From the IMG/VR virus record IMGVR_UViG_3300047509_000156, positions 1 to 64,000 of that record: a stretch of DNA of 64,000 bases. One strand, 5' to 3'. The notes beneath the pieces were generated by a model. It was not told the origin of the DNA. It searched no databases and saw only the letters and a list, made by a program, of their open reading frames with translations. This DNA is from a virus. The translations under genes were made by a program, and so were the position numbers. Of this stretch, positions 14,432 to 59,958 are shown one piece after another. Each line of letters begins with the position of its first letter. Position 1 is the stretch's first letter.

Positions 14432-14441
14432 AGTGTCCGCT

Positions 14442-15127: not shown

Positions 15128-15450
15128 TTCTGTTCTCCGTGAGCCTGGATCATGGGCAGCATCTTCTGGATGACTTCGAGAGGATCGCAGTTGCGGGCGT
15201 GCCAGTTCCAGTGCGTCTCGCCGCTGATCTCCTCGGGCGTACCACGGTAACTGCCCTGCTGGCAGAGGATCGTACCACGGAAGGTGTCCCTCCTGAGCAG
15301 TTCGGCGATCAACTCCTCGGTGGTGGCCAGTTCGAGCGACGTTGGTGCCTTGGCGGCACGGGTGACGCAGTCCCAACACATCGCCCCCTTACCCAGATCG
15401 AGGAAGGCGCTGGTGGTCATGTCGCAACCGCAGCCGGGACAGGTAAGCAT
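15124..15450 (-). CDS. Zn-finger hypothetical protein (start MLTCPGC)
   Basis: CPGC...CWDC; AAGGA RBS. Confidence 0.55.
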   Translation of the reverse strand: MLTCPGCGCDMTTSAFLDLGKGAMCWDCVTRAAKAPTSLELATTEELIAELLRRDTFRGTILCQQGSYRGTPEEISGETHWNWHARNCDPLEVIQKMLPMIQAHGEQK

Positions 15451-15462
15451 GGGAGGGTCCTT

Positions 15463-15490
15463 TGTCACAACGAGGAGAAGGCTGCGTACA
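15463..15490 (+). promoter_or_regulatory. ECF-like promoter motif copy 2 (TGTCAC-N15-GCGTACA), pointing antisense to the fibre gene
   Basis: Motif and spacing identical to the other copies apart from one base. Confidence 0.6.
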
Positions 15491-15560
15491 TGGTAGCGGA
15501 AAACCACCGGCGTACAACAGGTGATTCGTTCCTTCGTCGCACATGCCATCAATCGAAGGA

Positions 15561-17696
15561 TCAACTCGACGTGGTAAACGTGGCCCAGACAGTGCTTCCT
15601 GTCGTGTTCACGAACAACCGCGACGTGGTCGAGTTGCCGCCCGTGTTCAGACAGAGACTGCCCTGTGCGGCAGTAAACGTCGGCACTGTCGAACTGACGT
15701 AAATGCCGAACGCGGCCGTGCTGGAGATCAGGACTGCTGCCGTGGTGGCCGCGTTTGATGGCGCCACGTTGGAACAGATCGTCACCGTGCCGGCCGTGCC
15801 GGCACTGGTGCCGCCGTTGATCGTCACCGATCCGCCGCTGCCCGACGTGTTCCCGCCCGCACCGCCAGCGATGGCCACTGCCCCGCCGGTACCCGAACCG
15901 GCGCCTGGTCCTCCGGCGCCTGCCGTAAGGGTAAGGTTCCCGCCAGAGGATGAACCAGAGCCACGGCCACCGACCATACTGGCTGCACCACCGGCCGAGT
16001 TACCGGCCGTTCCTGCCCCGCCAGCGACGGCTACAGCACCACCAGCGCCCGATGTCGCTCCACCCGCTCCGCCCGTCATACTGACTGCGCCGCCGGCGCC
16101 TGTTGCTCCACCTGCTCCGCCTGTCAGGCTTGCCAGTCCGCCAGCAACGGCGGTTGCGCCTGCACCGGCAGCCATGATAAGTGTGCCGCCGCCGGCGCCC
16201 GTTCCGGCGACATTTGTACCGGCCGCCCCGGCCGTGATCGCCACATTGCCTCCAGCACCTGAAGTTCCGGCGCCCGATGTTGCCCCGCCGGCCCCGGCGA
16301 GAATCGTCACTGCTCCACCGGCACCACCCGTTCCTGTCGCCGAACCGGCACCGCCGACGCCAGCCGTGAGTTGGCCTGACCCGCCGATGCCACCGGCACC
16401 AGTGGAACTTGACGCACCACCGGCACCGCCGATCAAGGCTGCCGTGCCGGCCTGGGCTGCCGCCGAGGAACCCGCGACGGTGCCCGAGGCGCCGGCCGTG
16501 ATTGTCACCGCACCACCAGCAGCGCTGGCCTGGCCGCCCGTGGCCGAGCAGGCACCGCCGGCCCCACCTGTGATCGTCACTGCGCCACCAGCGCCAGTGA
16601 TACCAGACGTGGCTGATGAGCAGGCGCCACCAGCACCGCCTGTGATCGATACTGCCGAACCGGCACCACCGATACCGGCCGCTCCTGTCGTTGCTCCGCC
16701 GGCAACGCCAGTGATCGAGATTGTGCCACCAGCGCCACCAGTTCCTGTGGTCGCCGTGCCCGTCGTGCCGCAAGTTAGAGTAATGGCACCGGAAGCCGAG
16801 GCAACGGTTGTCGTGGCGTTGGAAGAGGCGCCCGTCGTGATCGTACAGGCACCACCAGCACCGGATGTTGCACCACCTGCTCCACCCGTCAGGCTGGCGG
16901 CACCGCCGACGCCGGTAGCGCCGCCGGCGCCGGCTGTAGTGGTGCTGGCGCCACCGGCTGCCGAACCCTGGCCGGCACCGCCGACGAGGGAAGCCGCCCC
17001 GCCGGCAGCGTTACCGTTGACGCCGGCACCACCAGTAAGACTCACAGCGCCGCCGGCACCCGAGGTAGCACCACCCGCCGCACCAGCGATGACGACGGCG
17101 CCGCCAGCGGTAGAAGTCGTCGAGGCCCCACCTGTAATGTTGAACGCCTCGCCGCCGGTCGAGGAGATAGCCTGCATCAGGACGCCGCCAGCGGCAGCAG
17201 ACGACGTGATCTTGACGCCAGTGGCGGCACTGCCAGCGCTGGCGGAAACTGCAAACGCCGGGTTCGTCGTGCCGTTGGGACCAACGACAAAGGCGTTTGC
17301 CGACGCCGAGGTGATTGTCTGGGCCACGTTGGTTGTCTGGAGAATGCCGGACTTCAGTGCTCCGGTATTGTCCAGGGTGTACACGTCGAAGAAGCCGCCC
17401 TCGCCCGTCGTGATGAGATAATCAACCGTCGTGGCATCCGTCGTCGCCGCCATCAGGATGTCGCCGGCGCCCAGAGGTAGGTTGACGATGAACAGTTGCT
17501 CGTTTGGTCCCAGTTGCGCCCGCACGATCTGACGTTCCGTCAGGGCACCGGCCGGGTCGATGGAGATGAGAACCGTCTCCGTCAGCGATCCCGACTTGTT
17601 CTGGAGGATCAGCGTGACCTGATTGGGGTAGTTGATGACCCCGGTATAAAGTGCGGTATCGGCGACGGCAAGTTGACCCGAAGCGAGTACAGACAC
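15561..17696 (-). CDS. Gly/Ala-rich repeat fibre-like virion protein (GGAVTITGGAG repeats); start reassigned to GTG 17696
   Basis: About 25 GGx(V/A)x(I/L)xxGxG units; GAGGTG RBS. Confidence 0.8.
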   Translation of the reverse strand: MSVLASGQLAVADTALYTGVINYPNQVTLILQNKSGSLTETVLISIDPAGALTERQIVRAQLGPNEQLFIVNLPLGAGDILMAATTDATTVDYLITTGEGGFFDVYTLDNTGALKSGILQTTNVAQTITSASANAFVVGPNGTTNPAFAVSASAGSAATGVKITSSAAAGGVLMQAISSTGGEAFNITGGASTTSTAGGAVVIAGAAGGATSGAGGAVSLTGGAGVNGNAAGGAASLVGGAGQGSAAGGASTTTAGAGGATGVGGAASLTGGAGGATSGAGGACTITTGASSNATTTVASASGAITLTCGTTGTATTGTGGAGGTISITGVAGGATTGAAGIGGAGSAVSITGGAGGACSSATSGITGAGGAVTITGGAGGACSATGGQASAAGGAVTITAGASGTVAGSSAAAQAGTAALIGGAGGASSSTGAGGIGGSGQLTAGVGGAGSATGTGGAGGAVTILAGAGGATSGAGTSGAGGNVAITAGAAGTNVAGTGAGGGTLIMAAGAGATAVAGGLASLTGGAGGATGAGGAVSMTGGAGGATSGAGGAVAVAGGAGTAGNSAGGAASMVGGRGSGSSSGGNLTLTAGAGGPGAGSGTGGAVAIAGGAGGNTSGSGGSVTINGGTSAGTAGTVTICSNVAPSNAATTAAVLISSTAAFGIYVSSTVPTFTAAQGSLCLNTGGNSTTSRLFVNTTGSTVWATFTTSS

Positions 17697-17713
17697 AATA
17701 TCACCTCGATTAT

Positions 17714-17929
17714 TTAGGAGGTTCGATACCACTCGGGCAGCGTGCCAACAGCGGCCTCTGCCGATTTCGTTTGCCGCTCCCCGATTCCCCAGAACTCGAC
17801 TTCCTTGACCGTGCCATCGTCCCCGTAGACGATTTTCTTTACGCGCGGGCAGGTACCGCCGTGCAGGCAGCCGCACCAGCGGCAGGCGCCTTCGAGATCA
17901 AGACCGGGAGTCAGGCTGTCGGCGTTCAT
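17714..17929 (-). CDS. Small CxxC protein
   Basis: CRWCGCLHGGTCPRVK; ATGA coupling. Confidence 0.55.
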   Translation of the reverse strand: MNADSLTPGLDLEGACRWCGCLHGGTCPRVKKIVYGDDGTVKEVEFWGIGERQTKSAEAAVGTLPEWYRTS

Positions 17930-18285
17930 CCATTTTCCCTGGCTGATTCATGAACTTGTTCTGCGGTAGCCGCAAACCAGTAGCCACGCACCCACTCTTC
18001 TCTCTCGGGAGATCCTTCTGGATAAGGGATGTTATTAGCATCCCTACCTGCGGCGTATGCCTCGAATCCCTGGAGATACTCCGGCGAGTTCTCGGCTGGC
18101 TTACGGTTTGTGACAAGGTCGTCGTCGATACCCAGCCGTCTCTTGATGCCGCTGATGGCCTTGATCATTCCCAAAAGAAAGGGCACGAAGAAGGCACAGA
18201 ACAGCAGGAGAAACACCAGTTCCATCACCTGAGACGAACTCATGGCTGGTTTACTGCCCGCCTGCTGAACTATCTGTGCTGTCAT
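17926..18285 (-). CDS. Membrane-anchored protein with RMF-like (ribosome modulation factor-like) C-terminal motif
   Basis: Hydrophobic helix LVFLLLFCAFFVPFLLGMI, then YLQGFEAYAAG...PY....REEWVRGY. Confidence 0.55.
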   Translation of the reverse strand: MTAQIVQQAGSKPAMSSSQVMELVFLLLFCAFFVPFLLGMIKAISGIKRRLGIDDDLVTNRKPAENSPEYLQGFEAYAAGRDANNIPYPEGSPEREEWVRGYWFAATAEQVHESARENG

Positions 18286-18695
18286 GTCAGGCTCAAAACC
18301 ACGTTGACTGGGGGATCGGGCGGCACGTTCTGCGTCGGGATCGTCAGCGAGTTGGATGTCGCCGGTGCCGAGGAGAGGTTCGTCGCGCCGTTGACGGCCA
18401 CTACTGTGGCAACCAGCACGTCACCGCCTGCCAGCGTGACGCCAGGATTGGCGGCATCCCAGGTTGAAGAGTAGCCTGACGCATCTCCGGATGCCGACTG
18501 GGGCACAGTGACAGGCGAACCGGCGGCGACGCCGTTACGCTGCCAGGAAACGCCATAACTCGTCACTCCCGAGGAGTCTGAAGCGTTCCACGTCACCTTG
18601 GGGTTGATGGCCATGTGATGATGCCTCTTGTGGTAGTGCAGCCGCAGGCGAACATGTCGCGGCGGTTTGGGTGGACGGTGCAATGCTGCGTCCAT
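18282..18695 (-). CDS. Fibronectin type III/Ig-like virion protein
   Basis: VTWNAS...VTSYGV...TVVAVN...SS...PPDPPVNV pattern; directly after the portal gene. Confidence 0.6.
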   Translation of the reverse strand: MDAALHRPPKPPRHVRLRLHYHKRHHHMAINPKVTWNASDSSGVTSYGVSWQRNGVAAGSPVTVPQSASGDASGYSSTWDAANPGVTLAGGDVLVATVVAVNGATNLSSAPATSNSLTIPTQNVPPDPPVNVVLSLT

Positions 18696-20278
18696 CAGGG
18701 ATGGTATCCATTGCCGTTGATACGAGCAAATTTCCGCGTATATGCAGACTTTCCGCCCTGCGTCGGTACAACCGGCGAGCCGCTATTCGTTGGCCGGGTC
18801 CTCTCGACATTACCCGCCTGCCGCATCCGGTTAGGCTGGGAGTTACCTGCCGTGCCTTCGAGGAGCGACTGGAGCTGAGCGTCTTCGGGAGACTCCTCCT
18901 TGGCCGGCGGTTCTCCCGCCTGCTGGACCTGGCCGGGCATTATCTGCCCTTCGCTGCCACCTTCCATTCCTGGCTTCTGGGCAAAGATGGCGCCGTTGAT
19001 GGCTCGCTCCTCGCCCCAGTCCTCGTCGATCTTCTTCAGCTTCCGCAAGTGGCGGATCTCGTTGATGGTCCTGATCCCCGCCTGGAGATCCGTGTTAATC
19101 TGCCTCTCCCTCAACTCCTCGTCGTCGATGGGTTTGGGCTCGTACTCGGCGAAGTAGTTAAAGCCGTAGAACGGCCAGACAAGCGAGAGATTGTCAGCGT
19201 CGGCTAATTGTTGCAGCAGTGGCATCAGGGTGAAGAGGTTGAACTGTTTCAGGGCCGCGTAGAGGATCGCGTAACTCGTGTCCTCGTTCTGGAAGGCCAG
19301 TTGGCGAGAGACGCCAAAGATGCTCATGACGAAGGACATGAGTTGCTTCCAACTCTCCACCCAGCCCATTTCGATGTCTGTTTCTCCGTAGGACTTCATC
19401 GTTAATCCAGGCGAAAGGACGACGGTACTTCCCGTCTTCCACGGCCCGGAGTACATTTGACGCAATTCGTGCTTCAGGCGGTCGAGTTCGGCGCCACGGG
19501 GGAAGAGGATCTGCGGGTCGGCCTCGACGACGTTGTCCGGTTTGGCCGCGTTCTGAGTGCGAGCAAATCTTCCCTGCTCGATCGAATTAAGCGTGTCCAA
19601 AGGCAAGGAACAGGCTGTCAGAGGCGAGAGTCCTTCCTGATCGGTGAGCGGATGAGGGAATCGCGTCGCCGTGATATAGCGCGCCGGCACGACGACGCCG
19701 CCTTGGTTCCAGGCGCCGGGCATCAGGTTTAGTGGACCTGGCCAGAAAGGCTGGATGCGGTAGGCGCCATCGGGATAGACGGATGATGGAGCAATAGGCT
19801 GGTAGGTCCCCGTGGGTACGTTCCACTGCTCGTGCGGCCTGCCGAAACCGTCTTTCACCTGCCAGATGAGCGAGGTGCCGGTTAACTCCAACTGCTGTAC
19901 CCGTCGTCGCCTGAGCGTGGCCCCTGTCTCCTTGGGGTTGGGGTGGTTAAAGACGCGGCAGAGGTCATGGCTCCTTGGCAGCGCCTCGCGGTGTTCGAGG
20001 TCGTTGCCCATCCTGGCTTCCTCTTCCCACTGGTAGAGGCGCAGGGAAGCAGCGGCAGCCTGGTCCATCAGTACCTTGATGGCTACGTAGACGGCGCCGA
20101 TGTCGCGGAAACTTTCCTTGAGGTGGTCGCTCCACCAGTTGACGGGGGCGGGAGAACGGCGGGCGGCGAGATAGTTCTCCCGTGCCATCACGTCGGCAGG
20201 CGAGCCTTCACCGGCCATCTCGGAGACTGGCTGATGGTAGACGGCGGAGAACAGGCCCTGGTAGGAAGGTTTGGCCAT
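18695..20278 (-). CDS. Portal protein (HK97-like)
   Basis: VYVAIKVL, PNPKET, LELTG, GLSPL, IFGVS, TINEIR motifs; 527 aa. Confidence 0.9.
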   Translation of the reverse strand: MAKPSYQGLFSAVYHQPVSEMAGEGSPADVMARENYLAARRSPAPVNWWSDHLKESFRDIGAVYVAIKVLMDQAAAASLRLYQWEEEARMGNDLEHREALPRSHDLCRVFNHPNPKETGATLRRRRVQQLELTGTSLIWQVKDGFGRPHEQWNVPTGTYQPIAPSSVYPDGAYRIQPFWPGPLNLMPGAWNQGGVVVPARYITATRFPHPLTDQEGLSPLTACSLPLDTLNSIEQGRFARTQNAAKPDNVVEADPQILFPRGAELDRLKHELRQMYSGPWKTGSTVVLSPGLTMKSYGETDIEMGWVESWKQLMSFVMSIFGVSRQLAFQNEDTSYAILYAALKQFNLFTLMPLLQQLADADNLSLVWPFYGFNYFAEYEPKPIDDEELRERQINTDLQAGIRTINEIRHLRKLKKIDEDWGEERAINGAIFAQKPGMEGGSEGQIMPGQVQQAGEPPAKEESPEDAQLQSLLEGTAGNSQPNRMRQAGNVERTRPTNSGSPVVPTQGGKSAYTRKFARINGNGYHP

Positions 20279-29667: not shown

Positions 29668-30228
29668 CTAATTCGGTGCCCCATCTGGCACATCAAGCAA
29701 GTGGCCTCTGCGCTTGCCTGATCCTATCCGGCTGACTGTTTGCTGCCGGATACCGAACGCTTCGGCGATGATCGTCTGTTTGACGCCTTCGCGAAGCAAC
29801 TTGCGAATCTCCCTGACTTCGCCGTCAGAGAGTTTGTGAAGAGGGTGCCTCTCGCCCCGATTGTCTGTCCCGTCTCGAACACGATCCATCATATTCTCGG
29901 AGTGAGTCCCCCAACGAAGATTGGCGCGCGAGTTGTCGCTGACGCCTGCCTGGCCGTGAAGAACATCCAATCCTTCCGGGCGTGGACCAGCGAAAGTCTC
30001 CATCACCAGATGGTGAACGTACATCGTCCTTGGCTTGCCGTTCGTGCGAAGATCAACCGTCATGTACCCGTTCTTGGTTCTGCCAGGGCGCAGTAACCTC
30101 GGCTCTGAGGCGGTACCCCAGCGTCCGTTGCGCCATGTCCTGACGTTACCCAGATTGGACACGTCGTAGATCCCCTCGTAGCCTCGGACTGGTAGCCAGT
30201 TCTCGACGATGTTATCCTGACTCTGCAT
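29668..30228 (-). CDS. NUMOD4-HNH homing endonuclease with C-terminal HTH (start MQSQDN)
   Basis: ENWLPVRGYEGIYDVSNLGNVR (NUMOD4); VHHLV...VLH...DN...NLRWGT..EN. Confidence 0.9.
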   Translation of the reverse strand: MQSQDNIVENWLPVRGYEGIYDVSNLGNVRTWRNGRWGTASEPRLLRPGRTKNGYMTVDLRTNGKPRTMYVHHLVMETFAGPRPEGLDVLHGQAGVSDNSRANLRWGTHSENMMDRVRDGTDNRGERHPLHKLSDGEVREIRKLLREGVKQTIIAEAFGIRQQTVSRIGSGKRRGHLLDVPDGAPN

Positions 30229-30385
30229 GACGACCTCGTATGGTGGGGTTGTTGTGCCGGGCAGGCCAGCGACGCGATCCGCTGCCTGCCCATCTTTACG
30301 CGCGCATCGTACTCGGGAATCCGTATATGCGTCCAGACGTAACGCCGTCTTGCCGTCCGAAGCGCTTGTCACTACAAAGAGAAGC

Positions 30386-30516
30386 AGGTCAATGGTGTAG
30401 CGGTAGCACACCCTGCCAGAAGCGGGTAACGACGGTTATCCGTGAAGGCACAGGCTGGCGGCGACGGCTGCTCGGCTTGATTCGGGAGGGGCCTGTTCGA
30501 CTCAGGCGTCCGACTT
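30386..30516 (+). ncRNA. tRNA-like RNA with a structured insert of about 60 nt
   Basis: tRNA D-arm TGGTGTAGCGGTAGCAC and T-arm GCCTG-TTCGACT-CAGGC about 80 nt apart; upstream TTGCCG-N17-TACAAA; downstream U-run. Confidence 0.6.
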
Positions 30517-30534
30517 TTTCCAAGAGAGAAGATA

Positions 30535-30849
30535 ATGAACAAGGTGTACGCCGTCTCAGGCTGGAAGGAAGATTCAGGCGAATCCGATAGAGACTGGGAA
30601 TGGGTCGTCTGCTGCTACACCGAAGAGGAGATGGCGCAAAAGCACGTCAAGATGCTCAAGGAGGCGGTTGCAAGTGGCAGGGAAGAAGCTAAGGGGAAAC
30701 GCGACAAGTTGCAGTCGTTTCGGACGGAACTGGACCCGAAACTATACGGCATCAGCCATAGTTCCTGGTACGGGCCATCGTACACCGTTGAGGAGATCGG
30801 CCTATTCCTGCACGTCGATCAGTTTATGGAACAGGTGGCGGTAAGGTGA
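30535..30849 (+). CDS. Hypothetical protein
   Basis: 104-aa ORF with plausible composition, downstream of the tRNA-like RNA. Confidence 0.6.
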   Translation: MNKVYAVSGWKEDSGESDRDWEWVVCCYTEEEMAQKHVKMLKEAVASGREEAKGKRDKLQSFRTELDPKLYGISHSSWYGPSYTVEEIGLFLHVDQFMEQVAVR

Positions 30850-33089: not shown

Positions 33090-34315
33090 AGCCGGGGGCT
33101 TTCCGGCTGACTACGCACTAATGGTATGCGCCGTAGTCGCCAGTTCTATGGCCAGGTTACAAGTGGCCAGAGCACTCAGATTGAGTGCGGCGTTCCAATC
33201 GGCGTTGCAGGAGAAACCGCAGTGCAGACAGACAAACTGAGCCTGACTCTTGCGGTTGGCCTTCTCGCAGTGTTGGCAAGCGCTGCAAGTGCGGCTGGTG
33301 TTCCGTGGATCGACAGCCATGACGGGCACACCTTCCCTCAACGCCTTGTAGTCGATGAAGCTGCGAAGCTGGTGGAACGCCCAGCCCGACAGCCTGTTGC
33401 GTGCATCACCGCCCCTGGCTCTGATCCGTTCGCGTATACCCTTGAGTTCTTCAAGAGCAATCCCGCGCCCGGTGCGTTTGGCGGATTCGACGATGCGCCG
33501 ACTGATGACGTGGTTTTCATGCCGGCGGAACCTGGCTTCCTTGCTGGCGATCCGCTTCAGCTTCTTCTTCGCCCCCTTCGTGTTCCGGCGCTGAAGGCGT
33601 TCGCGCTGGAGGTTGTGCTTGCGGCGAACCTTCTCCACCGGCTTGCCGGAGTAGGCGTTGCCGTCGCTGTCCGTGGCGATCTGCGCTATTCCCAGATCGA
33701 CGCCAAGGAACTCGGTTGCCTTGATCGGCTCGGGCGCTTCGTCGATCAACTGGACGTGGAGGAAGTAACCGCCATCGCGCCGCTTGACGAGAGTTGCCGA
33801 AGTCGGCTTGCGGCCCTTGAGTGCTGCCTTCTGCCGTTCGCCGAGTTCCGTGGCGATGCGAGCGCGGCCCGAGAGCATGGTCAGGCCGAACGTCCAGTTC
33901 CATTCGTGGAAGGAGAAAATACGAGCATCGTAGTCGATGCTGGTGGGCGCGAAGCCCGAGTGCATCTTCTCCGGCACCTTGAGTGCGTTGCAAGCCCTGG
34001 CAATGGCCCTGATCGCCAGGTTGGCGGACAGTCCGAAGTTCGCCCTGATGGCATGGTAGGCTTCCTTCTGCACCGTCACCTTGTTCGTGGAGTTGATGCG
34101 CCTGGCCGTGTCGGCGGCATACTCGCACCCCTGAGCGAACGCCTGCAAGGTGGCGTCGATGTCGGAAGCCTGCTCTTGCGTCGGGATCAGCTTGCAGACG
34201 ATGGTGCGGATGGTTTCCATAAGGGACATTCTATCACAGGAAGTATTCACAGTGCAAGGTCGGCAGGCGACCGTTCTACCCCATGCCTGAAGGCAGGGGC
34301 TTCCAGGATCGTCAG
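33069..34315 (-). mobile_element. IS200/IS605-family (IS1341-like) solo TnpB element, no tnpA
   Basis: End hairpins AAGCCCCTGCCTTCAGGCATGGGG (left) and AAGCCCCCGGCTTTAGCCGTGGGG...GTTAC (right); left boundary uncertain (34305 or 34315) because of a junction duplication. Confidence 0.8.
33111..34220 (-). CDS. tnpB: RNA-guided endonuclease TnpB (start METIRT)
   Basis: RuvC D/E/D intact (GVDLG, IALEEL, NADWNAA); Zn finger CSAC..CLHC; promoter TTGCAC-N18-TAGAAT-N7-ATG. Confidence 0.93.
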   Translation of the reverse strand: METIRTIVCKLIPTQEQASDIDATLQAFAQGCEYAADTARRINSTNKVTVQKEAYHAIRANFGLSANLAIRAIARACNALKVPEKMHSGFAPTSIDYDARIFSFHEWNWTFGLTMLSGRARIATELGERQKAALKGRKPTSATLVKRRDGGYFLHVQLIDEAPEPIKATEFLGVDLGIAQIATDSDGNAYSGKPVEKVRRKHNLQRERLQRRNTKGAKKKLKRIASKEARFRRHENHVISRRIVESAKRTGRGIALEELKGIRERIRARGGDARNRLSGWAFHQLRSFIDYKALREGVPVMAVDPRNTSRTCSACQHCEKANRKSQAQFVCLHCGFSCNADWNAALNLSALATCNLAIELATTAHTISA

Positions 34316-34511
34316 GTGACTTCCTGCCCCACTGACAGTTGACGTGTCCCTGTATCTTGAGGATCTCTTCTTCGGTGATGATCCAATGTTTCTCGCAAGA
34401 CCAGCACTTGACGGCATCGATATCCGGCTTTGAGCAGTCCTCAACGTCGCCGTCGTTGATCCAGTTCGCCTTGCCGCAGTGTGGGCAGGGGAGTCGATGC
34501 CAGGTGTCCAT
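34306..34511 (-). CDS. Zn-ribbon protein interrupted by the TnpB element and now in frame with tnpB
   Basis: CPHC...CWSC; GAGGAGG RBS; no stop before tnpB. Confidence 0.6.
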
Positions 34512-45241: not shown

Positions 45242-45269
45242 TATACGCGGCCGTCGCTATTGTGTGACA
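45242..45269 (-). promoter_or_regulatory. ECF-like promoter motif copy 3
   Basis: TGTCAC-N15-GCGTATA. Confidence 0.75.
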
Positions 45270-48008: not shown

Positions 48009-48036
48009 TATACGCTCAATCGGGCAACTTGTGACA
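48009..48036 (-). promoter_or_regulatory. ECF-like promoter motif copy 4, upstream of the second sigma gene
   Basis: TGTCAC-N15-GCGTATA. Confidence 0.75.
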
Positions 48037-50593: not shown

Positions 50594-51493
50594 TCAATTT
50601 GCGTTGACGTATGGCGCCAAGAGGCCCCCAGCTTCAGATGCCGTTATCGAATACTTGATCTGTTGCTGCATCATGGATAGCGCCGCGCCCTCATACGATA
50701 AATTTGAAAGCAGCGATCCAGCTCTTGTCGATGCCCTCAATTGCGCCACCATTCGCTCCGCTGCCAGGGTAATGTCGTAGGGTAGTTTATCCCAACCGGC
50801 ACAGTACGTGACCATCAGGTTGCCCTGGCCGTTGATGGGCACCGTGGAGAGGTTGATCCCTGGCGCGTAATACTTGGTACTCCACGTCTGGTTAATCCGC
50901 CACAGACAACCGCAGCGCGAAGAAGAATCAGGCTGGTCCCTGTCGATCCAGTAGTCGTTGCCGTAGTAGAGTTGCGACGATGGCGAAGAAAACGATCCCG
51001 GCACGCTGCCACCATATGACAGATCGTCCTGCACGATATTCGCCCCGAAGGAGAGCGTCGTCAACCCCGTCAACGCGGCAGCCTGCGACAGGGTGATCGT
51101 CCCCGTCCCCACCGTGGCAATCGTCGTCAGCGGCTGAATGGCAAACGAGCCGATACAGGATACCCCTTGGCCGGCGAAGAGGTACTTGGTACTGCTCATC
51201 CCCGTCACCACGCTCGATCCGGCGACCGTATTGCCCGTGTAGATGGGTGCCTGTACGGGCCGGTCGCGGAGGATAAGTGGCCCCTCCGAAGGTCCCGATC
51301 CCATCCAGGTGATCGGGTTGGCCGGGTTGGAGGCCAGCATTACCGTCCTTCCCAGGTGTTCCTGGATGGCTGCACTCACCTCGGCAATCAACTGGTTGAG
51401 GATGAAGTCGTAGAGCGTCTTGGAAGGCTGGATACCAAGGACGATCTTGACGGCCGGCAGGGAGGTACAGGGGTCTACGTTGGGGATGCTCAT
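50594..51493 (-). CDS. Head-tail connector (gp6-like) with an inserted beta domain
   Basis: TSLPAVKIVLGI..D..LNQLI..VS..I..HLGR; VTYCAGW..LPYDI..A. Confidence 0.75.
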   Translation of the reverse strand: MSIPNVDPCTSLPAVKIVLGIQPSKTLYDFILNQLIAEVSAAIQEHLGRTVMLASNPANPITWMGSGPSEGPLILRDRPVQAPIYTGNTVAGSSVVTGMSSTKYLFAGQGVSCIGSFAIQPLTTIATVGTGTITLSQAAALTGLTTLSFGANIVQDDLSYGGSVPGSFSSPSSQLYYGNDYWIDRDQPDSSSRCGCLWRINQTWSTKYYAPGINLSTVPINGQGNLMVTYCAGWDKLPYDITLAAERMVAQLRASTRAGSLLSNLSYEGAALSMMQQQIKYSITASEAGGLLAPYVNAN

Positions 51494-51813
51494 CAGGACG
51501 AACCCACTTTATCTTTGAGAATGTTGCCTATGTGCCAGCCTTTACAGTCAGGGCATTCGTAGGCTTGCAGGACAAAGCCGGGTCGCTTGCCCATGTGAGA
51601 GATAGCTTTTTCAGCCTTCTCTTTGGATCGGTAGCAGGTTTTTCGCACACATCGGTGGTAGATATGTTGTAGCCTGCCATTACTTCCTGCTGTTTCTCTG
51701 TGGTTGCCGGACAGGTTCAATATATCTGATGCTTTTTCCACAGAGCCACAGATCGATGTCCCGTTCCAGTTCACGCCGCGAGAACGCCGACGTGGCGAAG
51801 ACCCATTCGCCAT
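51493..51813 (-). CDS. Zn-binding hypothetical protein
   Basis: K..Y.S...A...AYECPDCKGWHI. Confidence 0.55.
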   Translation of the reverse strand: MANGSSPRRRSRGVNWNGTSICGSVEKASDILNLSGNHRETAGSNGRLQHIYHRCVRKTCYRSKEKAEKAISHMGKRPGFVLQAYECPDCKGWHIGNILKDKVGSS

Positions 51814-51912
51814 TCGCCATCACCCCATCGTCGGATCGGAAAACATACCCAACCCATACTCGCAGTTCCGAGACGAGCGGATGGCGCTGACAGCGGATCT
51901 GGGTGACGTGGC

Positions 51913-53751
51913 TCACACGGTTCTCTCAAAGGACATCGCCGGGCACTTCTCATCCTCTACTGCCATCGTATCGATGACGCCCTCGGGCAGGTCCTGCTTC
52001 CTACGGACAAACCACAGCGAATCAGGGCCGTGGCGCAGGACGCCGTACTTCCTCTGGAACCATGTCGAAGCGTAGCCTTCCGTCAGCGCTTTGTTGACAC
52101 CTTCCGAGTAGGTGTCATGGCCGCACAGAATCCCTCCCGGCTTGACGTTGATCATCCATAAATCGATGTCCCGCTGCGCTGACTCAAAGGCGTGGTCGCC
52201 GTCGATAAAGACGACATCCGCCGAGTCGGCAGCAAAGCGCGCCGCCGCCTGGAGCGACGTTGATAGCCACGATTCGATGGTTAGATCATGACGCAATCGT
52301 CGCAATTCGTCGCTCTGTGTTTGCCATGTCTTCATGGCCTCGGCGGGATCGAACTTTTCATTGTCGCCAATTCCCAGGAAGGGATCGACACAGATCAGTT
52401 TGCAGCCCGCAGGAAGGGCCAGGGCGACCGCCGAGGCGCTACGTCCCATCCAGGTGCCCACTTCAACCCAGACGCCTCCTGGGGCCAATTCTGACGCTCT
52501 CTTGGCCAGCCAGAGGAGTTCAGCGTGCGTCATCCATCCTGATACCGAGATGGCGTAGAGCGCTGCTACCTCGGGCGCGAAGGCGTTATGCTGTGGTTCC
52601 AGGGAAGCGTGCGGCACGACCTCAGTGGATCGCCTGGCGAACTCGTGGTTGGCCACCAGCATCTCGACCGCCTTGCCAGTCATCGTCTTGCCATTGACGT
52701 TCTTCTGGATCTTGTCCAGCAATTCGCCGCCGGAGCGAAGGTTTTCCATTTGCGTTTGCAGGATCGCGCCTGGTGCCCTATCTGTCCGGTCGCGGGGAAC
52801 GCTGGCCTCGTTCCTTCTCAGCAACGGCGTTCCCGTCGCTGGGCACAGTGCGAAGTGCGTCCAATGCCCGGCACGGTCCACGTAGGGCTTGAATTCCATC
52901 TCGCCATGTGAGGACCCGCACGCCTCGCAGTGCGGCACCAGCAGCGACACGATCCCCGCCTGCGACATCTTTGTCTTCCGTGCCGATGTGAGATCCGAGT
53001 GGATCTTCCGCTGGTGCTTGTGGAGATTGTCGAGTTGTTCGGGTGTGACGATGGCCGGCTTGCCAACCCAGTTGCTTTTGTGGTGCTGTGCCCAGTTGTC
53101 CCAGTCCACGTAGAGCGGCACGCCGGCAAAGAACAATTTGCGGTGGAAACAGCACTCCTCAGTCTCCAGAACCTCCGTCCCCTTGGCGTTGTAGGTGTAG
53201 TCGTACCAGGGCGGCTGGATGATATCGAAGCACTTCCCAGAGTAGGCAATACACCCAGTCCCGAGGTTGGCGACCCGCTCGATCCCCGTCCGCCGCGCCG
53301 CATCCTCGCGCCCCACGTTGACGACAAGATGCGTCTGGTCCTGTGTCCACGAGTGGATCAGGTTGTTCTCATCAATCGTTGGGTTCGATGCCGAACCCCA
53401 CTCGAAGACACAGACATTCTCCTGCACCCCACCCATACAGTAGGGCAATCCGATCACAGCCGGTCCCTGATGATTTAGAAGGAAGTCAACCATCCTCTCG
53501 AAGCATCCATCCTGCACCCACATATCGTCGTCGATCATGAAGACAACATCGGGCTTGATCTGTCTGAGCTGATCGGCGGCGAAGTTTCTTGCCACATTGG
53601 TGGGGAATCGCTTGACGGGCATGTAAACGAGTTCGCCCAGGTCCTCGCGGAGCCGGCAGGTGATCTCGGCATCGACGTGAAAGCGCGACACCTCTTCGCG
53701 ATGACTGCCTGAACCCAAGGGTTTGACGAGAGCGATGGTGTACTTGGCCAA
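51913..53751 (-). CDS. Glycosyltransferase-like domain fused to a class I SAM methyltransferase (Methyltransf_24-like)
   Basis: ARN..VFMIDDD..GTGC..EECCF (GT-A); VEVGTWMGRS, VFIDGDH, PGGILCGHD. Confidence 0.8.
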   Translation of the reverse strand: MAKYTIALVKPLGSGSHREEVSRFHVDAEITCRLREDLGELVYMPVKRFPTNVARNFAADQLRQIKPDVVFMIDDDMWVQDGCFERMVDFLLNHQGPAVIGLPYCMGGVQENVCVFEWGSASNPTIDENNLIHSWTQDQTHLVVNVGREDAARRTGIERVANLGTGCIAYSGKCFDIIQPPWYDYTYNAKGTEVLETEECCFHRKLFFAGVPLYVDWDNWAQHHKSNWVGKPAIVTPEQLDNLHKHQRKIHSDLTSARKTKMSQAGIVSLLVPHCEACGSSHGEMEFKPYVDRAGHWTHFALCPATGTPLLRRNEASVPRDRTDRAPGAILQTQMENLRSGGELLDKIQKNVNGKTMTGKAVEMLVANHEFARRSTEVVPHASLEPQHNAFAPEVAALYAISVSGWMTHAELLWLAKRASELAPGGVWVEVGTWMGRSASAVALALPAGCKLICVDPFLGIGDNEKFDPAEAMKTWQTQSDELRRLRHDLTIESWLSTSLQAAARFAADSADVVFIDGDHAFESAQRDIDLWMINVKPGGILCGHDTYSEGVNKALTEGYASTWFQRKYGVLRHGPDSLWFVRRKQDLPEGVIDTMAVEDEKCPAMSFERTV

Positions 53752-53753
53752 GA

Positions 53754-54137
53754 CTATTCTCCCTTTGGATACTTCAACCGTTCAATCTTCCACTTCTCCA
53801 TGCGGAATATCGTGCCTTCCTTTTCCATAACGCCTTCGCGTGTTCCCGGCTTGATCTTGATGGTGTGGACGGAGTAGTAGGATTCATCCCTCAGAGGCAT
53901 TATCGCCTCGCGGAACCACAGACGGCCGTTGCTGATGCCCCAGCGTCCGGCGTATCTGGTAGAGAGCCAGGAGGATTCGTAGTAGCCGTCCGCACGAAGA
54001 ATGGCGTCGAACTTGTTTGTCCCCCATGTTATTTGCCAGTGGCCAGCAAACGCCGGAACCGTCAGCGGTACGGCAGGTGCAGGCCGAGGAAACGGCGCCG
54101 GTGCCGCGATGGCCAGGCAGAGGAGGAGATGGTTCAT
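53754..54137 (-). CDS. Secreted small beta protein with planctomycete-type signal (start MNHLLLCLAIAAPAPFP)
   Basis: Signal peptide plus APAPFP; GHWQ..GRW. Confidence 0.65.
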   Translation of the reverse strand: MNHLLLCLAIAAPAPFPRPAPAVPLTVPAFAGHWQITWGTNKFDAILRADGYYESSWLSTRYAGRWGISNGRLWFREAIMPLRDESYYSVHTIKIKPGTREGVMEKEGTIFRMEKWKIERLKYPKGE

Positions 54138-54138
54138 G

Positions 54139-54438
54139 CTACTCCGGTATGACGATGACTTGTTTCGATGGCACCACGACGCCGCCTTCCGCCCATGCGC
54201 CGGGAAGATAACTGGCAGGCCAGCCGGGGAACTCCTTGATCCTCCAGGCACCGTCAGGATAGAGCGGCGACGGTTCGATATAGGTGGCGCATTCTTTTGG
54301 GATGTGGCAAACTCTCAGCAACCGTCCGAATCCATCCTTGACGTTCCAGAGAAGCAGTTTGCCTGTCTGTTTTTCTTTCTCGGGAAATGCCCATCCAAAG
54401 AGACAGGCGATCGTCGATAGGAATACTCGTCTGATCAT
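54139..54438 (-). CDS. Tat-like leader fused to a portal-derived segment (99 aa)
   Basis: MIRRVFL; 34/66 ungapped identity to the portal at 18695..20278; AGGAG RBS. Confidence 0.85.
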   Translation of the reverse strand: MIRRVFLSTIACLFGWAFPEKEKQTGKLLLWNVKDGFGRLLRVCHIPKECATYIEPSPLYPDGAWRIKEFPGWPASYLPGAWAEGGVVVPSKQVIVIPE

Positions 54439-54656
54439 GTTGACTCCTGCCAATGTTTGTCGATTGGTTTGAGTTTACGCAGGCGACGTATTTCATTGAT
54501 GGTGAGCGGCCCCGTCTGAAGATCAGGAGCGAAACAGATCATCTTGGCGCATCGTCTGCTTGTTTGTCGTGGTTTCTTTGGCTGTGGCGTCTTCTTGACG
54601 AGGAGCGACAACCCGGTAAGGCCAATAAGAGAAGCAAGAAAGTTTCGCCGGATCAT
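54435..54656 (-). CDS. Tat-like leader fused to a portal crown-derived peptide (73 aa)
   Basis: MIRRNFL plus hydrophobic stretch; 19/27 ungapped identity to portal DLQAGIRTINEIRHLRKLKKIDEDWGE; GGAGG RBS. Confidence 0.85.
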   Translation of the reverse strand: MIRRNFLASLIGLTGLSLLVKKTPQPKKPRQTSRRCAKMICFAPDLQTGPLTINEIRRLRKLKPIDKHWQEST

Positions 54657-54859
54657 GCGTATTCCTCCACTTCCTGTCCGCCATCGGCGAAAGCGTTACC
54701 AATCTCCTTGACGGCGTCGTACATACCGCCAGTTGGTGGCCCCATGAGGAAACCACCGCCACGGTGAAGGAGTGCCTTGTAGAGATGCACGAAGACCCTG
54801 TCCTGGCATTCCGGTGGCAGTTTGTCGAACTTCTTCCGCAGGTATTCTCCCGTCGTCAT
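54653..54859 (-). CDS. Hypothetical protein
   Basis: GGAGG RBS; ATGA coupling. Confidence 0.55.
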   Translation of the reverse strand: MTTGEYLRKKFDKLPPECQDRVFVHLYKALLHRGGGFLMGPPTGGMYDAVKEIGNAFADGGQEVEEYA

Positions 54860-55062
54860 CGCTTCCTCCGTCCGTAACTTAACTCATTGAGTGCCGCTGA
54901 AATCTTCCTTGCCGCCTGACGCTCCGTCTGATCCATCTTGCCCCACGGGTCGCTCTGCGCCTCGTAGAGTCGTTCCATCTCCACCGTCTCGGCAGCATTT
55001 CCATCGGGGTCGATGTCGTTGAGTTGCAGGAGTATCGAGACATACTTGGCGAAGGGACTCAC
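54856..55062 (-). CDS. Hypothetical protein (start GTG, MSPFAKY)
   Basis: GGAG RBS 8 nt upstream of GTG 55062. Confidence 0.5.
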   Translation of the reverse strand: MSPFAKYVSILLQLNDIDPDGNAAETVEMERLYEAQSDPWGKMDQTERQAARKISAALNELSYGRRKR

Positions 55063-55393
55063 GGTGGTTGCTCCGTGACGGGCTGCACGCCAGCATATAC
55101 ACTCGCCGCGTTCTCCACAATGAGACACGGACACAGGTAGAGCATCCTGTGTCCGTGTGACCAGCGTGGAGAGATTGGCGATGGGAGATTTCTCAGGCCG
55201 GCTTGTCCTGTGTACCCATTTGGGCCGTGAAGAGAGCGGCCATGTAGGCGTCGGCCGCAGCCACGGATTTCAGGCTCTCCGGTTTGCCCTGTGCGTTTGC
55301 CAGAGATGCTGCAAGGATCGAGGTTGCTGCGCCGATAAGTGTGTCATTGGCGGCTACGGTTGGTTTGCTCATTGTTTCTCCTCAGAGTAAGAA

Positions 55394-55717
55394 TCAGATC
55401 GAACCGGAAGAATGCCGCGTGATCGTCAGTTCGCCCCTCTCGTCCACGGCGGCATCCTCAACGAAGTATGGCTCGGCGGCGCAACCTCCTGCAAGGGCGC
55501 TGGTAATCTCGGCCATCATGTCCTTGTCGGGATGCACACAGATGTACGCTTCCAGAATCTTGCCGCACTCGGCCACAAGGACGATTTTCTTGGTTGGCAG
55601 CCTGATGCTCTGTTTGTGACCGATGCCCAGAGCGTTCAGAAAGGCGTCAACGGCGTCGATTCCTCGCATGGCCATGACTTGTCTCCAGAGGCGGGCGGCA
55701 CCGGCAGTATACAGCAT
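55394..55717 (-). CDS. Hypothetical protein
   Basis: Operon member downstream of the decoration gene. Confidence 0.45.
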   Translation of the reverse strand: MLYTAGAARLWRQVMAMRGIDAVDAFLNALGIGHKQSIRLPTKKIVLVAECGKILEAYICVHPDKDMMAEITSALAGGCAAEPYFVEDAAVDERGELTITRHSSGSI

Positions 55718-55734
55718 GGCGGCGCGAGATCGTC

Positions 55735-56214
55735 TCAGACGGACGGACTTCTACTGAACCCGCCTTCACCAGTACCGAAACCGGGCTGACGTTTCTTCCC
55801 GCTGATCAGGAACCCCGACAGCCCAAACGCCCCAGTCGCGGTCGTCGCCGCGAAGGTATTGGCGTTCATGCGGACGTACCGCTGCGTCCGCAGTCCCATG
55901 ATGGCCTGGAACAAGTTGGCGCCTGCCGTCGTGGCCGTCACCGTGAGGATCATCTGCGTGATCCCGTAGTCCGCCGAATTGACGCCGGAGATCACGGTCC
56001 ACGACCCCGTGCCAGAGGGTGATTCCTCGGCCTGCACGACGAGGTTGGTTACGTTGGCCACTGTGGGTACGGAGGCGATCAGCTGCATGGCGATACTGAA
56101 CTCGCCGTCGCCCGACGTGGCCCAATCAGCCGAAGCACCCTGCGACGTGGCGGCGAGGGTGACGTTGTTGAACTGGAAGGAGCGAAGCGTCTCATTGACG
56201 TAGTCCAGAAGCAT
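55735..56214 (-). CDS. Probable capsid decoration/cement protein
   Basis: First co-oriented gene after the capsid; EES..G.G.WT...RYVR pattern; GAGGTG RBS. Confidence 0.65.
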   Translation of the reverse strand: MLLDYVNETLRSFQFNNVTLAATSQGASADWATSGDGEFSIAMQLIASVPTVANVTNLVVQAEESPSGTGSWTVISGVNSADYGITQMILTVTATTAGANLFQAIMGLRTQRYVRMNANTFAATTATGAFGLSGFLISGKKRQPGFGTGEGGFSRSPSV

Positions 56215-56257
56215 CGGAATCACCTCATGGAAAATGGGTTACGACGAGTGGAATTGA

Positions 56258-56285
56258 GGTCACTCGCGATGGGTTTGGGCGTATA
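56258..56285 (+). promoter_or_regulatory. ECF-like promoter motif copy 5 (GGTCAC-N15-GCGTATA)
   Basis: Same spacing; upstream of an HNH gene. Confidence 0.65.
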
Positions 56286-56366
56286 ATGAAGGCGGACCCG
56301 GCACCGTCCCTTAACGGTGTCAGGTCCTGACCGATCAAAGCACCCTTGACTAGAAAGGGCACCTCG

Positions 56367-57260
56367 ATGGCTACAGGACAGCGTATCAGGGATCTCGCCG
56401 GGCAGCGCTTCGAGCGGCTTCTCGTTCTCCGCTTCGACTCGATCAACCACAACAGCAAGGTTGTCTGGTGGTGCCGTTGCGACTGCGGGACCGAGAAGGC
56501 GATCCTGGGCGCGCATATGACACGAACCACTGATCCGGTCGTCTCCTGTGGTTGCTGGCGACGGGAGATGCCGAAGATCCGCGACAGTAAACCGGGGCGA
56601 CAGACGGACGGCAAGCGAGCGCCGGAATACACGGCATGGTGTGGCGCCAAGGATCGCTGCTGTCGAAAAGGCGCCAGGAGTTATCCCGATTACGGCGGGC
56701 GAGGCATCGTCATGTGCGACGAGTGGCGCGACAGTTTCGATGCCTTCCTGGCCGACATGGGAACCAAACCGGGTCCGGAATACTCTCTCGAAAGGCAGGA
56801 CGTTAATGGGCCGTATGCGCCATGGAATTGTGTCTGGGCGCTGCCGGTTGAACAGGGCAACAACAAGAGGAACAACGTCCTGCTGACTTTCCAGGGACGG
56901 ACGATGAGCGTTTCGCAGTGGGCGCGAGAGTTGGGGATGAAGGTACTTACGCTTTATCAGAGGATTCGTCGTGGCATGTCGATTGAGGACGCTTTTACCG
57001 CTCCGCTTCGCCAGCAAGGAACACTGACTCCTGAAGAACGAAACAGGAGATACCTGGCTCGTTCCGCTATCAGAGATCGTGTTCGTCGCGGCAAGATGCC
57101 TCACGTTTCAACCCTCAAGTGTGTCTTTTGCGGTAAGCAAGCCGAGCATTACGACCACTACGCGGGCTACGATAGGGCTAATCGGCTTACGGTTCGTCCT
57201 GTTTGCGAGCGGCATCACCTCTGGGAACATGGCTCTCTTTTGGTCGAGCCAAAAGACTGA
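56367..57260 (+). CDS. HNH-type homing endonuclease inserted antisense between capsid and decoration genes
   Basis: GQRFERLLV..WWCRCDCG, YGGRGI.MCDEW, SLERQDVNGPYAPWNCVWA..EQ.NN; extra C-terminal CVFC..H.DH..C..HH. Confidence 0.88.
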   Translation: MATGQRIRDLAGQRFERLLVLRFDSINHNSKVVWWCRCDCGTEKAILGAHMTRTTDPVVSCGCWRREMPKIRDSKPGRQTDGKRAPEYTAWCGAKDRCCRKGARSYPDYGGRGIVMCDEWRDSFDAFLADMGTKPGPEYSLERQDVNGPYAPWNCVWALPVEQGNNKRNNVLLTFQGRTMSVSQWARELGMKVLTLYQRIRRGMSIEDAFTAPLRQQGTLTPEERNRRYLARSAIRDRVRRGKMPHVSTLKCVFCGKQAEHYDHYAGYDRANRLTVRPVCERHHLWEHGSLLVEPKD

Positions 57261-57269
57261 CAAATCGCG

Positions 57270-58769
57270 TCATGGGCCGACAGTGGCGCAGGAAATTGAA
57301 TCGCAAAAAGCCACTGTTCCGGGGTGTCTTGGACCTCCGTCGCCCGTGAGCACGCACCTGACCGCGCATTGGTCGCTCGACAGAAGTGTATAGCCCACAT
57401 CGGTTTGTACGAACTCAATTGCGCCGAAGAGGCCCAAGAGGTAGTCCGCCCATCCCGAAAAAAGTACATACGTCGCGTTCGTCACTCCACCCCGATTGTT
57501 GACGACCTGCACCGTCTTCGTCACCGGGTAGCCCGCCAGGTGCGGAATCGCCTTGCCCTTCAAATCGCGCACCAGCTCGTACACGAAGCCGCCCACTTGC
57601 CCGGCCCCGGAGTAAGGCGTCCACCGCGTCTGACTGAACGCATAACTCAACTGCGGCCTCATGATGAAGCCGCCGTTGTCCTGGTCGGGATTGCCATTGT
57701 TTTCCTCGACCACCATCGGGAAGGAGTAGGCGTCCTGCGGCGAGAGTTGGTTCGGTGAACCCGACGCTCCCGTCTGCGTCACTAGCGCCAACCCGTATGG
57801 GTTGCCCGAAGCGCTGCCCATCGTGGCCAGTCCCAGCGGTTGTGTCTGAGAGCCGTTGCCCTGGAGGAGGTAGAAGTCCAACTGCAAGGCGACACTCTTG
57901 AAGATGTCCGCCCTGATCAGGGCCTCGGTAGCCGGCGCCCCGTAGCGCAGCAACTCGTTGGGCAGCACCACCACGGTGATCATCTTGCGGGCGTTGAGGT
58001 TCAGCGCCCCCGTCGTGACCGTGGTTGGGGTTGTCTGGTTATTTTCCAGTTGCCCCTGGCTGGCTGTGGGCGTGATGAGGCGGGGGTAGGTGATTCGGCC
58101 CGAAGGACCCAGCGGCACGACGGTGGCGCCGGCGTTGAGCAATGCCTCGCGATTTCTCAGGAGTTCGATGGGCGGCCCGAAGGTTGGGGGAGGGACAAAG
58201 GTGCCGCCGCCGGCCTGGTCGGTCCAACTCTGCGCGGGTAGCGCGGCTGCCTTGCCGCCGTAGCCGGAAAGATCGTCGCGCAGGCCCTTGTTGTCGTAGG
58301 CTTTCTTGTACCAGTGCTGGATCTCTTCGGGGTCGGCACGATCGACGCCATGCTGAAGGAGCGATTTCATCTCGTAGTAGTCATCGTTGCTCATCATCTC
58401 CGAGTTGAACCCATCGGGCCACAGAGGGGCGAAGCAGTGCCCCGCTCCGGCGAACTTCTGGAAGCCGCCGCCGGCCTGGAAGGTAGCGTTGCGGATCTTT
58501 TCGGAGAGCATTCCCTCGACCTTGCAGAACTCAGGAGGGATGTGGCCGCCCACCATGCCCAGCATCTTGCCGAAGTAGAAGCCGCGCGAGGTCATGATGT
58601 TTTCACCACGCCGGGCATAGGGCGCCGATCCTGCGGGGGCGCCGAGAACTGGCTGCGCCCCCGTGTCGCGGGCGGCGGCGAGGCGGGCGTCGGTCGTCTC
58701 GATCTTGTTGAGCCGGCTTTCCATGTTGGACAGGACCTTGAGGACCTGTTCAGTGGCGGATTCTGGCAT
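57270..58769 (-). CDS. Major capsid protein, HK97 fold, with N-terminal delta-like domain
   Basis: GGGTFVP, IELLR, NELLR, G.G...QPLGL, LAGYPV. Confidence 0.9.
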   Translation of the reverse strand: MPESATEQVLKVLSNMESRLNKIETTDARLAAARDTGAQPVLGAPAGSAPYARRGENIMTSRGFYFGKMLGMVGGHIPPEFCKVEGMLSEKIRNATFQAGGGFQKFAGAGHCFAPLWPDGFNSEMMSNDDYYEMKSLLQHGVDRADPEEIQHWYKKAYDNKGLRDDLSGYGGKAAALPAQSWTDQAGGGTFVPPPTFGPPIELLRNREALLNAGATVVPLGPSGRITYPRLITPTASQGQLENNQTTPTTVTTGALNLNARKMITVVVLPNELLRYGAPATEALIRADIFKSVALQLDFYLLQGNGSQTQPLGLATMGSASGNPYGLALVTQTGASGSPNQLSPQDAYSFPMVVEENNGNPDQDNGGFIMRPQLSYAFSQTRWTPYSGAGQVGGFVYELVRDLKGKAIPHLAGYPVTKTVQVVNNRGGVTNATYVLFSGWADYLLGLFGAIEFVQTDVGYTLLSSDQCAVRCVLTGDGGPRHPGTVAFCDSISCATVGP

Positions 58770-59930: not shown

Positions 59931-59958
59931 TGTCACACCCAATCAAAACAAGCGTATA
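59931..59958 (+). promoter_or_regulatory. ECF-like promoter motif copy 6
   Basis: TGTCAC-N15-GCGTATA directly after the terminator, ahead of ORF 59990. Confidence 0.75.

Follow-up and report, generated by a model that had tools for sequence, protein, structure and literature searches.

Two small phage genes that join twin-arginine-type leaders to pieces of the phage's own portal protein: candidate envelope-targeted portal mimics

Superinfection-exclusion proteins, e.g., T4 Imm and Sp, HK97 gp15 and TP-J34 Ltp, are small proteins of the membrane or the periplasm by which related phages are kept from bringing in their DNA. A short piece of a head protein, too, can be active: the capsid-derived Gol peptide of T4, together with the Lit protease, acts on a defence system. 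The twin-arginine translocation (Tat) pathway has its own signature, the consensus (S/T)-R-R-x-F-L-K near the N-terminus. We here describe two adjacent open reading frames, ORF1 and ORF2, in which a leader of the twin-arginine type is followed by a copy of a piece of the portal protein of the very phage that encodes them. They are located in record IMGVR_UViG_3300047509_000156 of IMG/VR, a viral genome of 106,481 bp with direct terminal repeats that is rated complete; the DNA analysed, called the window below, is its first 64 kb. ORF1 and ORF2 are best read as orphan genes that have been maintained and that encode envelope-targeted mimics of portal surfaces. Judged from the sequence, this reading has a probability of about 50%. 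A leader-tagged portal fragment was not found described in the literature searched.

The preliminary description of this DNA had reported both ORFs, and they are indeed present, on the minus strand (Table 1) and 33.9 kb from the portal gene, for which about 34 kb had been given. The alignment of ORF1 with the portal is ungapped and comprises 34 identities, as had been counted, yet it extends over 70 residues and not 66 (E-value 9e-21). All the motifs that had been named in it are present (VKDGFGR, YPDGA, PGAW and GGVVVP). The match of ORF2 to the portal, 19 identical residues out of 27, was reproduced with an E-value of 1e-9. In an exhaustive phmmer search with ORF1 in 1.84 billion representative proteins, the first match after ORF1 itself was the phage's own portal (E 5.8e-13), and all further ones were other portals. 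A hidden Markov model (HMM) of the portal, run over the six frames of 52-58 kb, detected just the pieces in ORF1 (iE 5e-18) and ORF2. The sole structural neighbour family of the ESM Atlas model of ORF1 is Phage_portal (TM score 0.54).

What do these pieces correspond to? In the AlphaFold2 (AF2) model of the portal, the best structural matches of which are the HK97 portals 8FQL and 8CEZ, the counterpart of ORF1 is built from six beta strands of the wing and that of ORF2 from the C-terminal crown helices. Compared with HK97-family portals (PF04860; 8FQL/8CEZ; the portal of RcGTA, 6TBA), ORF1 has kept the wing sheet and ORF2 the crown helices, including signature residues. Clip, stem, tunnel loop and the ring-forming body are missing, and about one third of the portal-invariant residues are lost. 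The complete wing-stem-clip-crown fold that makes up a 12-mer ring is not found in either ORF, and PF04860 matches neither of them. Because the segments comprise just 70 and 27 residues and lack the ring-forming body, ORF1 and ORF2 cannot be portals. Pfam, PHROGs and NCBIfam yielded no match to either. A complex prediction with residues 20-430 of the portal and residues 19-99 of ORF1 scored 0.00, which speaks neither for nor against binding.

The two genes are equipped for translation as had been described. Each is preceded by a Shine-Dalgarno sequence (GGAGGA for ORF2, AGGAG for ORF1), and the ATG of ORF1 overlaps the TGA of ORF2 as ATGA at 54435-54438. Stop/start overlaps or 1-nt gaps chain a 92-aa gene, a 68-aa gene, ORF2, ORF1 and a 127-aa gene. 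ORF1 and ORF2 are predicted to be translationally coupled, lineage-specific accessory genes.

The leaders deserve a closer look. Both consist of MIRRxFL and 14-16 hydrophobic residues, and they are alike beyond chance: none of 2000 shuffles reached their score, which is driven by MIRRxFL. Neither the leaders nor the linker of ORF2 show similarity to any part of the portal. An origin of the leaders from the portal, e.g., from its RRRRV helix, was considered and rejected, the alignment scores being no better than those of shuffles. Another leader of the pattern M..RRxFL plus hydrophobic stretch was found neither among the ORFs of the 106-kb genome nor in a related 96-kb phage, G002. A spanin pair (i-spanin and lipoprotein o-spanin) was dismissed as well; the cysteine of ORF1 is located amid the hydrophobic residues, and a lipobox is lacking.

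Of the Tat consensus, the core RRxFL is present in both proteins (MIRRVFLS and MIRRNFLA); the flanking S/T and K are absent. The hydrophobic (h-) regions comprise 14 and 16 residues; their Kyte-Doolittle mean, taken over 12 residues, peaks at about 2.0, and the residues next to them are PEKEK and KKTPQ, respectively. A typical membrane helix would be longer than these regions, which have the length of a signal peptide. Like Tat signals, including the uncleaved signal anchors of the Rieske type, the leaders have RRxFL just past the start and then a short, moderately hydrophobic h-region rich in G, S and T that ends with proline or a basic residue. They differ from them in their very short n-region and in their passenger, which is a piece of a virion protein and not an enzyme or cofactor protein. 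TatC is encoded in all four of the planctomycete genomes that hold the closest relatives of the phage's transposase (see below); tatA was not found in the phage. The Tat-like leader of the preliminary description is a reasonable reading with regard to the motif, the short h-region and the TatC of the presumed host lineages; Tat-signal HMMs, however, did not match (see below). Tat-type export of ORF1 and ORF2 is plausible.

Are the genes maintained? A self-written branch model of the GY94 type was applied to 97 alignable codons of seven taxa, with F3x4 codon frequencies. In its unconstrained form it rejected a ratio of non-synonymous to synonymous substitution rates (dN/dS) of 1 on the fragment branch, with a doubled log-likelihood difference (2dlnL) of 18.4, and branch lengths hit their bounds. 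Since it was synonymous saturation that drove them there, a local clock, which means equal synonymous time for the fragment and its own portal, and simple counts were added. Under the local clock dN/dS is about 0.12 on the fragment branch and about 0.01 in the portals; a value of 1 is rejected for the 97 codons together (2dlnL 28.4), for the ORF1 part alone (15.8) and for the ORF2 part alone (13.0). The counts point the same way, with 28 amino-acid changes on the fragment branch versus 4 on the portal branch, and the Nei-Gojobori method implies a dN/dS of at most about 0.5. Overall, dN/dS of the fragment branch is about 0.1-0.5. The fragments outpace the portal about 7-10-fold in their rate of change, yet they are under purifying selection. 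The probability that both frames would stay open under neutrality is 0.03-0.002 (for 0.2-0.5 changes per site, indels not counted). The frame of ORF1 has the highest codon-usage score of the six frames, 0.149; for reference, real-gene windows have their 5th percentile at 0.10, and off-frame windows have their 95th at 0.04. The preliminary description had called the genes intact and maintained despite their divergence and had named a dN/dS near 1 as a sign of decay. The ratio is clearly below 1, and a diverged strain has the region in nearly the same form (see below). That ORF1 and ORF2 are maintained genes is likely.

The claim that the genes are built from the phage's own portal likewise agrees with what was found. 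Within 21 portals of the family, ORF1 fits best to its own portal (34/70, as compared to 18-30/70 for the others), and so does ORF2 (19/27 versus 6-14/27). VKDGF and LRKLKxID are among the derived residues that, among these portals, the fragments share with their own portal only. In the codon model a fragment branch that is sister to the own portal is the best of three placements by 12.5 log-likelihood units (lnL). This closeness and this placement imply that the duplication occurred within this lineage. At the DNA level fragments and portal are 55% and 65% identical, and the differences are mostly in third codon positions. The proportion of synonymous differences (pS) is 0.74, which implies that synonymous sites are saturated; the portal duplication is, by all appearances, old. 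On the coding strand the crown piece comes before the wing piece, and the locus is therefore not simply a decayed portal copy; that the portal HMM gives two pieces only in 52-58 kb also led us to reject a decayed full-length copy. The history would be consistent with a partial portal copy that had been tagged with a leader, was duplicated in tandem and was trimmed differently in each copy. We infer that part of the own portal gene was duplicated in this lineage and that two pieces survive behind related leaders.

Some information on variation comes from other soil studies. Three of them hold identical short pieces. A fourth (X5, 2018) contains a diverged strain, in which the junction of ORF2 and ORF1 (54375-54580) differs in 2 of 206 positions and the neighbouring genes by up to 13%. 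In one X5 contig, position 54652 is followed directly by 54856; the contig lacks the 68-aa gene and keeps the start of ORF2 and its Shine-Dalgarno sequence. This loss (54653-54859) joins two ATGA overlaps exactly, which suggests that small genes come and go here as clean cassettes. A 59-aa ORF at 55193-55372 is probably a real gene, since its X5 differences lie mostly in third codon positions; of 11 listed, 7 are synonymous. The X5 contigs are shallow, and the variants are too few for a ratio of non-synonymous to synonymous polymorphism (pN/pS).

As to the phage itself, library scans matched few of its genes to known phage families. The transposase of its insertion sequence (IS) at 33111-34511 has its nearest relatives in a metagenome-assembled genome (MAG) of the Gemmataceae (70% identity), in Singulisphaera (63%) and in Isosphaeraceae; a second copy of the transposase is found at 73013-74269 of the genome. 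The public runs that hold sequence of the phage are all soil metagenomes, with no RNA data set among them. Because of these planctomycete relatives and the soil origin of all runs, the host is probably a soil planctomycete.

The portal of G002 is 48% identical to that of the 106-kb phage. The gene order in G002 is the usual one of portal, X, protease-like gene, capsid, 145-aa gene, glycosyltransferase (GT)/HNH/methyltransferase (MTase) and adaptor. Relative to it, the portal-X-protease block of our phage is shifted by about 37 kb from the capsid-adaptor block (12497-20278 versus 50594-58769; G002 loci L019-L023). ORF1 and ORF2 lie between the genes of the major capsid protein and the head-tail adaptor, in a lineage-specific island. 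The island is placed between a 162-aa gene and the GT/MTase gene, which are adjacent in G002. No promoter or terminator signal was found inside the island, which suggests late co-transcription with the head genes; such transcription is likely. The 127-aa gene downstream of ORF1 has a weak homologue in G002 (30196-30651), at another genomic position.

Table 1. Coordinates of ORF1, ORF2, their portal counterparts and neighbouring features
Feature	Position	Strand	Description
ORF1	54139-54438	minus	99 aa; leader and portal-wing-like domain
ORF1 leader, aa 1-18	54385-54438	minus	MIRRVFL and 14 hydrophobic residues, then PEKEK; possible G-W-A cleavage site
ORF1, aa 25-94	54157-54366	minus	copy of portal aa 133-202 (six wing beta strands)
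ORF2	54435-54656	minus	73 aa; leader, basic linker, portal-crown-like C-terminus
ORF2 leader, aa 1-20	54597-54656	minus	MIRRNFL and 16 hydrophobic residues, then KK
ORF2, aa 45-71	54444-54524	minus	copy of portal aa 397-423 (C-terminal crown helices)
Shine-Dalgarno GGAGGA	54663-54668	minus	6 nt ahead of the ORF2 ATG
Shine-Dalgarno AGGAG	54444-54448	minus	5 nt ahead of the ORF1 ATG
Portal gene	18695-20278	minus	527 aa; PF04860, E 2.6e-36; only full portal in the phage; source lineage of both fragments
Portal, aa 133-202	19673-19882	minus	wing beta-sheet segment, counterpart of ORF1
Portal, aa 397-423	19010-19090	minus	crown helices, counterpart of ORF2
Lineage-specific island	53754-55717	minus	tightly coupled small genes, about 2 kb in all, within the late head operon; from synteny with G002
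127-aa gene	53754-54137	minus	begins 1 nt past the ORF1 stop; signal-like N-terminus; lipocalin-like structural neighbours; third envelope-type gene in a row

A few observations on the surroundings may be added. GT and methyltransferase form a single 612-aa ORF here (51913-53751); in G002 (L019:10621-13657) the GT-like and the MTase-like part are separated by a gene for an HNH endonuclease, which lies on the opposite strand. An HNH paralogue of our phage (56346-57260) follows directly after the capsid gene. Residues 173-207 of the capsid protein (gene 57270-58769) are 60% identical to residues 260-294 of the 321-aa protease-like protein (12497-13462). This stretch of about 35 residues marks the border of the N-terminal domain of the capsid protein and its HK97 fold, and it also matches within a 1005-aa ORF of another related record, G001. 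It appears to be a second module shared between head proteins. The window has three copies of the motif GTCACA-N15-CGTAT (45243-45268, 48010-48035 and 59932-59957), 0.07 copies being expected, and none of them is in the island.

How might ORF1 and ORF2 work? If they are mimics of portal surfaces, they would be made late along with the head genes, and their twin-arginine-type leaders would bring both proteins to the cytoplasmic membrane or to the Tat translocon. There, ORF1 would present a portal-wing and ORF2 a portal-crown surface, and the mimicry would consist in a competition for the usual binders of these surfaces. In HK97 the scaffold (delta) domain of the capsid protein docks in the groove between portal wings (PMC10275583), and in SPP1 portal-dependent procapsid precursors form at the inner membrane by a tether that is unknown (PMC13212656). 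In view of these precedents, a membrane-located mimic of the wing could interact with subunits of scaffold or capsid, either those of the own phage or those of a competitor. Alternatively, mimics at the periplasmic side might act on an incoming related phage. Interference at the envelope in the manner of superinfection exclusion is possible but doubtful, nucleation of procapsids at the membrane via the scaffold/capsid delta domain is a little more doubtful, and an immune decoy is highly improbable. What is left of the probability goes to a partner of another kind.

The known systems resemble ORF1 and ORF2 in part only. Superinfection-exclusion proteins are equally small, bear leaders and are encoded by lineage-specific accessory genes among structural genes; an action at the envelope would also be alike. 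They are, however, not related in sequence; the known ones are not built from virion proteins of their own phage, and their expression is early or takes place from the prophage, whereas ORF1 and ORF2 belong to a late head operon and have no promoter of their own. Lysogeny genes were not noticed in the phage, although no search was aimed at them. With Gol, the two proteins would share the short internal piece of a head protein as the active unit. Gol, however, resides within the capsid protein itself and has neither a separate gene nor a leader. T4 gp40 (with gp20), an assembly factor of portal initiation at the membrane, and the SPP1 system (PMC13212656) would have in common with our locus a membrane-targeted factor among head genes; the link between portal, membrane and scaffold is a conceptual one. 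There is no homology, and there a complete portal is held at the membrane, whereas our locus has only copies of portal pieces.

Quite a number of observations weigh against a maintained and exported pair of mimics. The estimates of dN/dS come from a home-made model, from 97 codons with saturated synonymous sites and from the alignable parts only. The codon score of ORF2 is -0.003 at a GC content of 0.50, beneath all real-gene windows tested; it resembles that of the mobile HNH gene. Of 22 positions at which portals vary hardly or not at all, ORF1 has lost the usual residue at about 8. In the low-depth contigs of the X5 strain, 2 of the 4 differences listed for ORF2 are non-synonymous, L18P in the leader being one of them. 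Up to an E-value of 10, the Tat-signal models PF10518 (Pfam) and TIGR01409 (NCBIfam) gave no match; these models are short, and the filters of HMMER discard weak matches. By inspection, a possible A-x-A-type cleavage site, G-W-A, is found in ORF1 and none in ORF2. The strongly basic stretch behind the hydrophobic segment of ORF2 would favour a cytoplasmic C-terminus if this segment is an anchor, in which case the topologies of ORF1 and ORF2 may differ. Finally, relatives are missing. A small-protein homologue of ORF1 was not present in the 1.84 billion representatives, neither ORF had one in 5.8 billion word-indexed clusters, and tblastn found no match in GenBank phages. Even a distant portal fragment was not detected when ten related IMG/VR records were searched as whole records (the portal alignment reached 15 loci). 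The preliminary description had counted absence from related phages against its own proposal, and ORF1 and ORF2 are in fact absent from every related record examined; these relatives are distant (portal identity at most 56%) and mostly incomplete, just one being at least 89% complete. Nor did IMG/VR, scanned for peptide patterns of the portal and of the capsid protein, reveal any close relatives.

Part of these points would equally fit a less flattering explanation, by which the two ORFs are non-functional, decaying scars, left by an illegitimate recombination when the portal block was relocated, and are open by chance. The portal-X-protease block has moved relative to G002, the island is lineage-specific, and the fragments are singletons without a counterpart in the relatives examined. 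Compared with the portal they evolve about 7 times faster, and residues that portals keep invariant are gone from them. The codon usage of ORF2 is poor and its GC content low, and the genome contains IS and HNH elements, which promote rearrangement. Yet a dN/dS of 1 is rejected for each fragment alone, and the frames are open despite synonymous saturation, at the low neutral probability given above. Each ORF has its start codon, Shine-Dalgarno sequence and stop/start overlap; scars would hardly be expected to carry two non-portal leaders with a common MIRRxFL, nor to show the order of crown before wing with no further portal remnants, nor to remain nearly unchanged in a diverged strain. Scars are, in our judgement, unlikely, but among the alternatives they have to be taken most seriously. 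A membrane platform for head assembly is clearly less probable. Here, anchored wing and crown pieces would recruit scaffold, capsid subunits or the portal to the inner membrane, similar in function to T4 gp40 with gp20 or to the portal of SPP1 when bound to the membrane. The position between the major capsid and adaptor genes is in line with it, and so are the docking of the HK97 scaffold domain between portal wings (PMC10275583), the portal-dependent, membrane-associated procapsid precursors of SPP1 with their unknown tether (PMC13212656) and the basic flank of ORF2, which favours a cytoplasmic C-terminus. Related phages, however, assemble without ORF1 and ORF2, and the island is accessory, with a gene content that varies even among strains. 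RRxFL with a short h-region also looks more like an export signal than like a stable anchor, and a wing or crown mimic would rival the portal in binding the scaffold and not hold the portal.

Besides envelope-located superinfection exclusion and membrane tethers for procapsid assembly, the preliminary description had proposed the role of decoys for portal-sensing immunity. Such cytoplasmic decoys would bind a sensor (Avs4, Avs11 or RAZR-type) without triggering it. Several bacterial sensors of the STAND class (signal transduction ATPases with numerous domains) are firmly known to be triggered by portals, and those of the Avs type bind directly to the folds of conserved phage proteins, the portal among them (bioRxiv 10.64898/2026.01.04.697583). 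For RAZR-type sensors, a paper suggests that they may ring portals. The blocks kept in the fragments are the most conserved ones of the portal. Both proteins, however, bear export or membrane leaders and the known sensors are cytoplasmic, and sensors of the Avs type bind folds via extended interfaces, not short segments (bioRxiv 10.64898/2026.01.04.697583). Because the leader points away from the cytoplasm and because of these extended interfaces, an Avs4 decoy is a poor fit. The position in the late head operon, moreover, implies that the fragments would be made together with the portal and not before it, and a portal decoy was not found described in the literature searched. Decoys of this kind are highly improbable.

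We thus return to envelope-targeted mimics of portal surfaces. ORF1 and ORF2 could be one case of a general, so far undescribed design that combines a Tat-type leader with conserved pieces of the phage's own virion proteins, although we regard this extension as a long shot. In its boldest form, the tagged piece may bind a ligand in the cytoplasm, be it a host sensor of virion proteins or an assembly partner of a rival phage, and the ligand may then be carried to or through the Tat translocon by hitchhiking and so be removed from the cytoplasm. Removal by hitchhiking would make the idea of a decoy compatible with an export signal.

The finding is best described as one of candidate accessory envelope proteins of a phage that arose by exaptation of a portal fragment. 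If they are functional, pieces of an essential and highly conserved virion protein would have been recycled into small envelope-targeted proteins, and the two genes would represent a clear case of new genes made by partial duplication and gain of a leader. The target of the mimicry may then be sought in the competition between phages, in membrane-linked head assembly or in the evasion of immunity.

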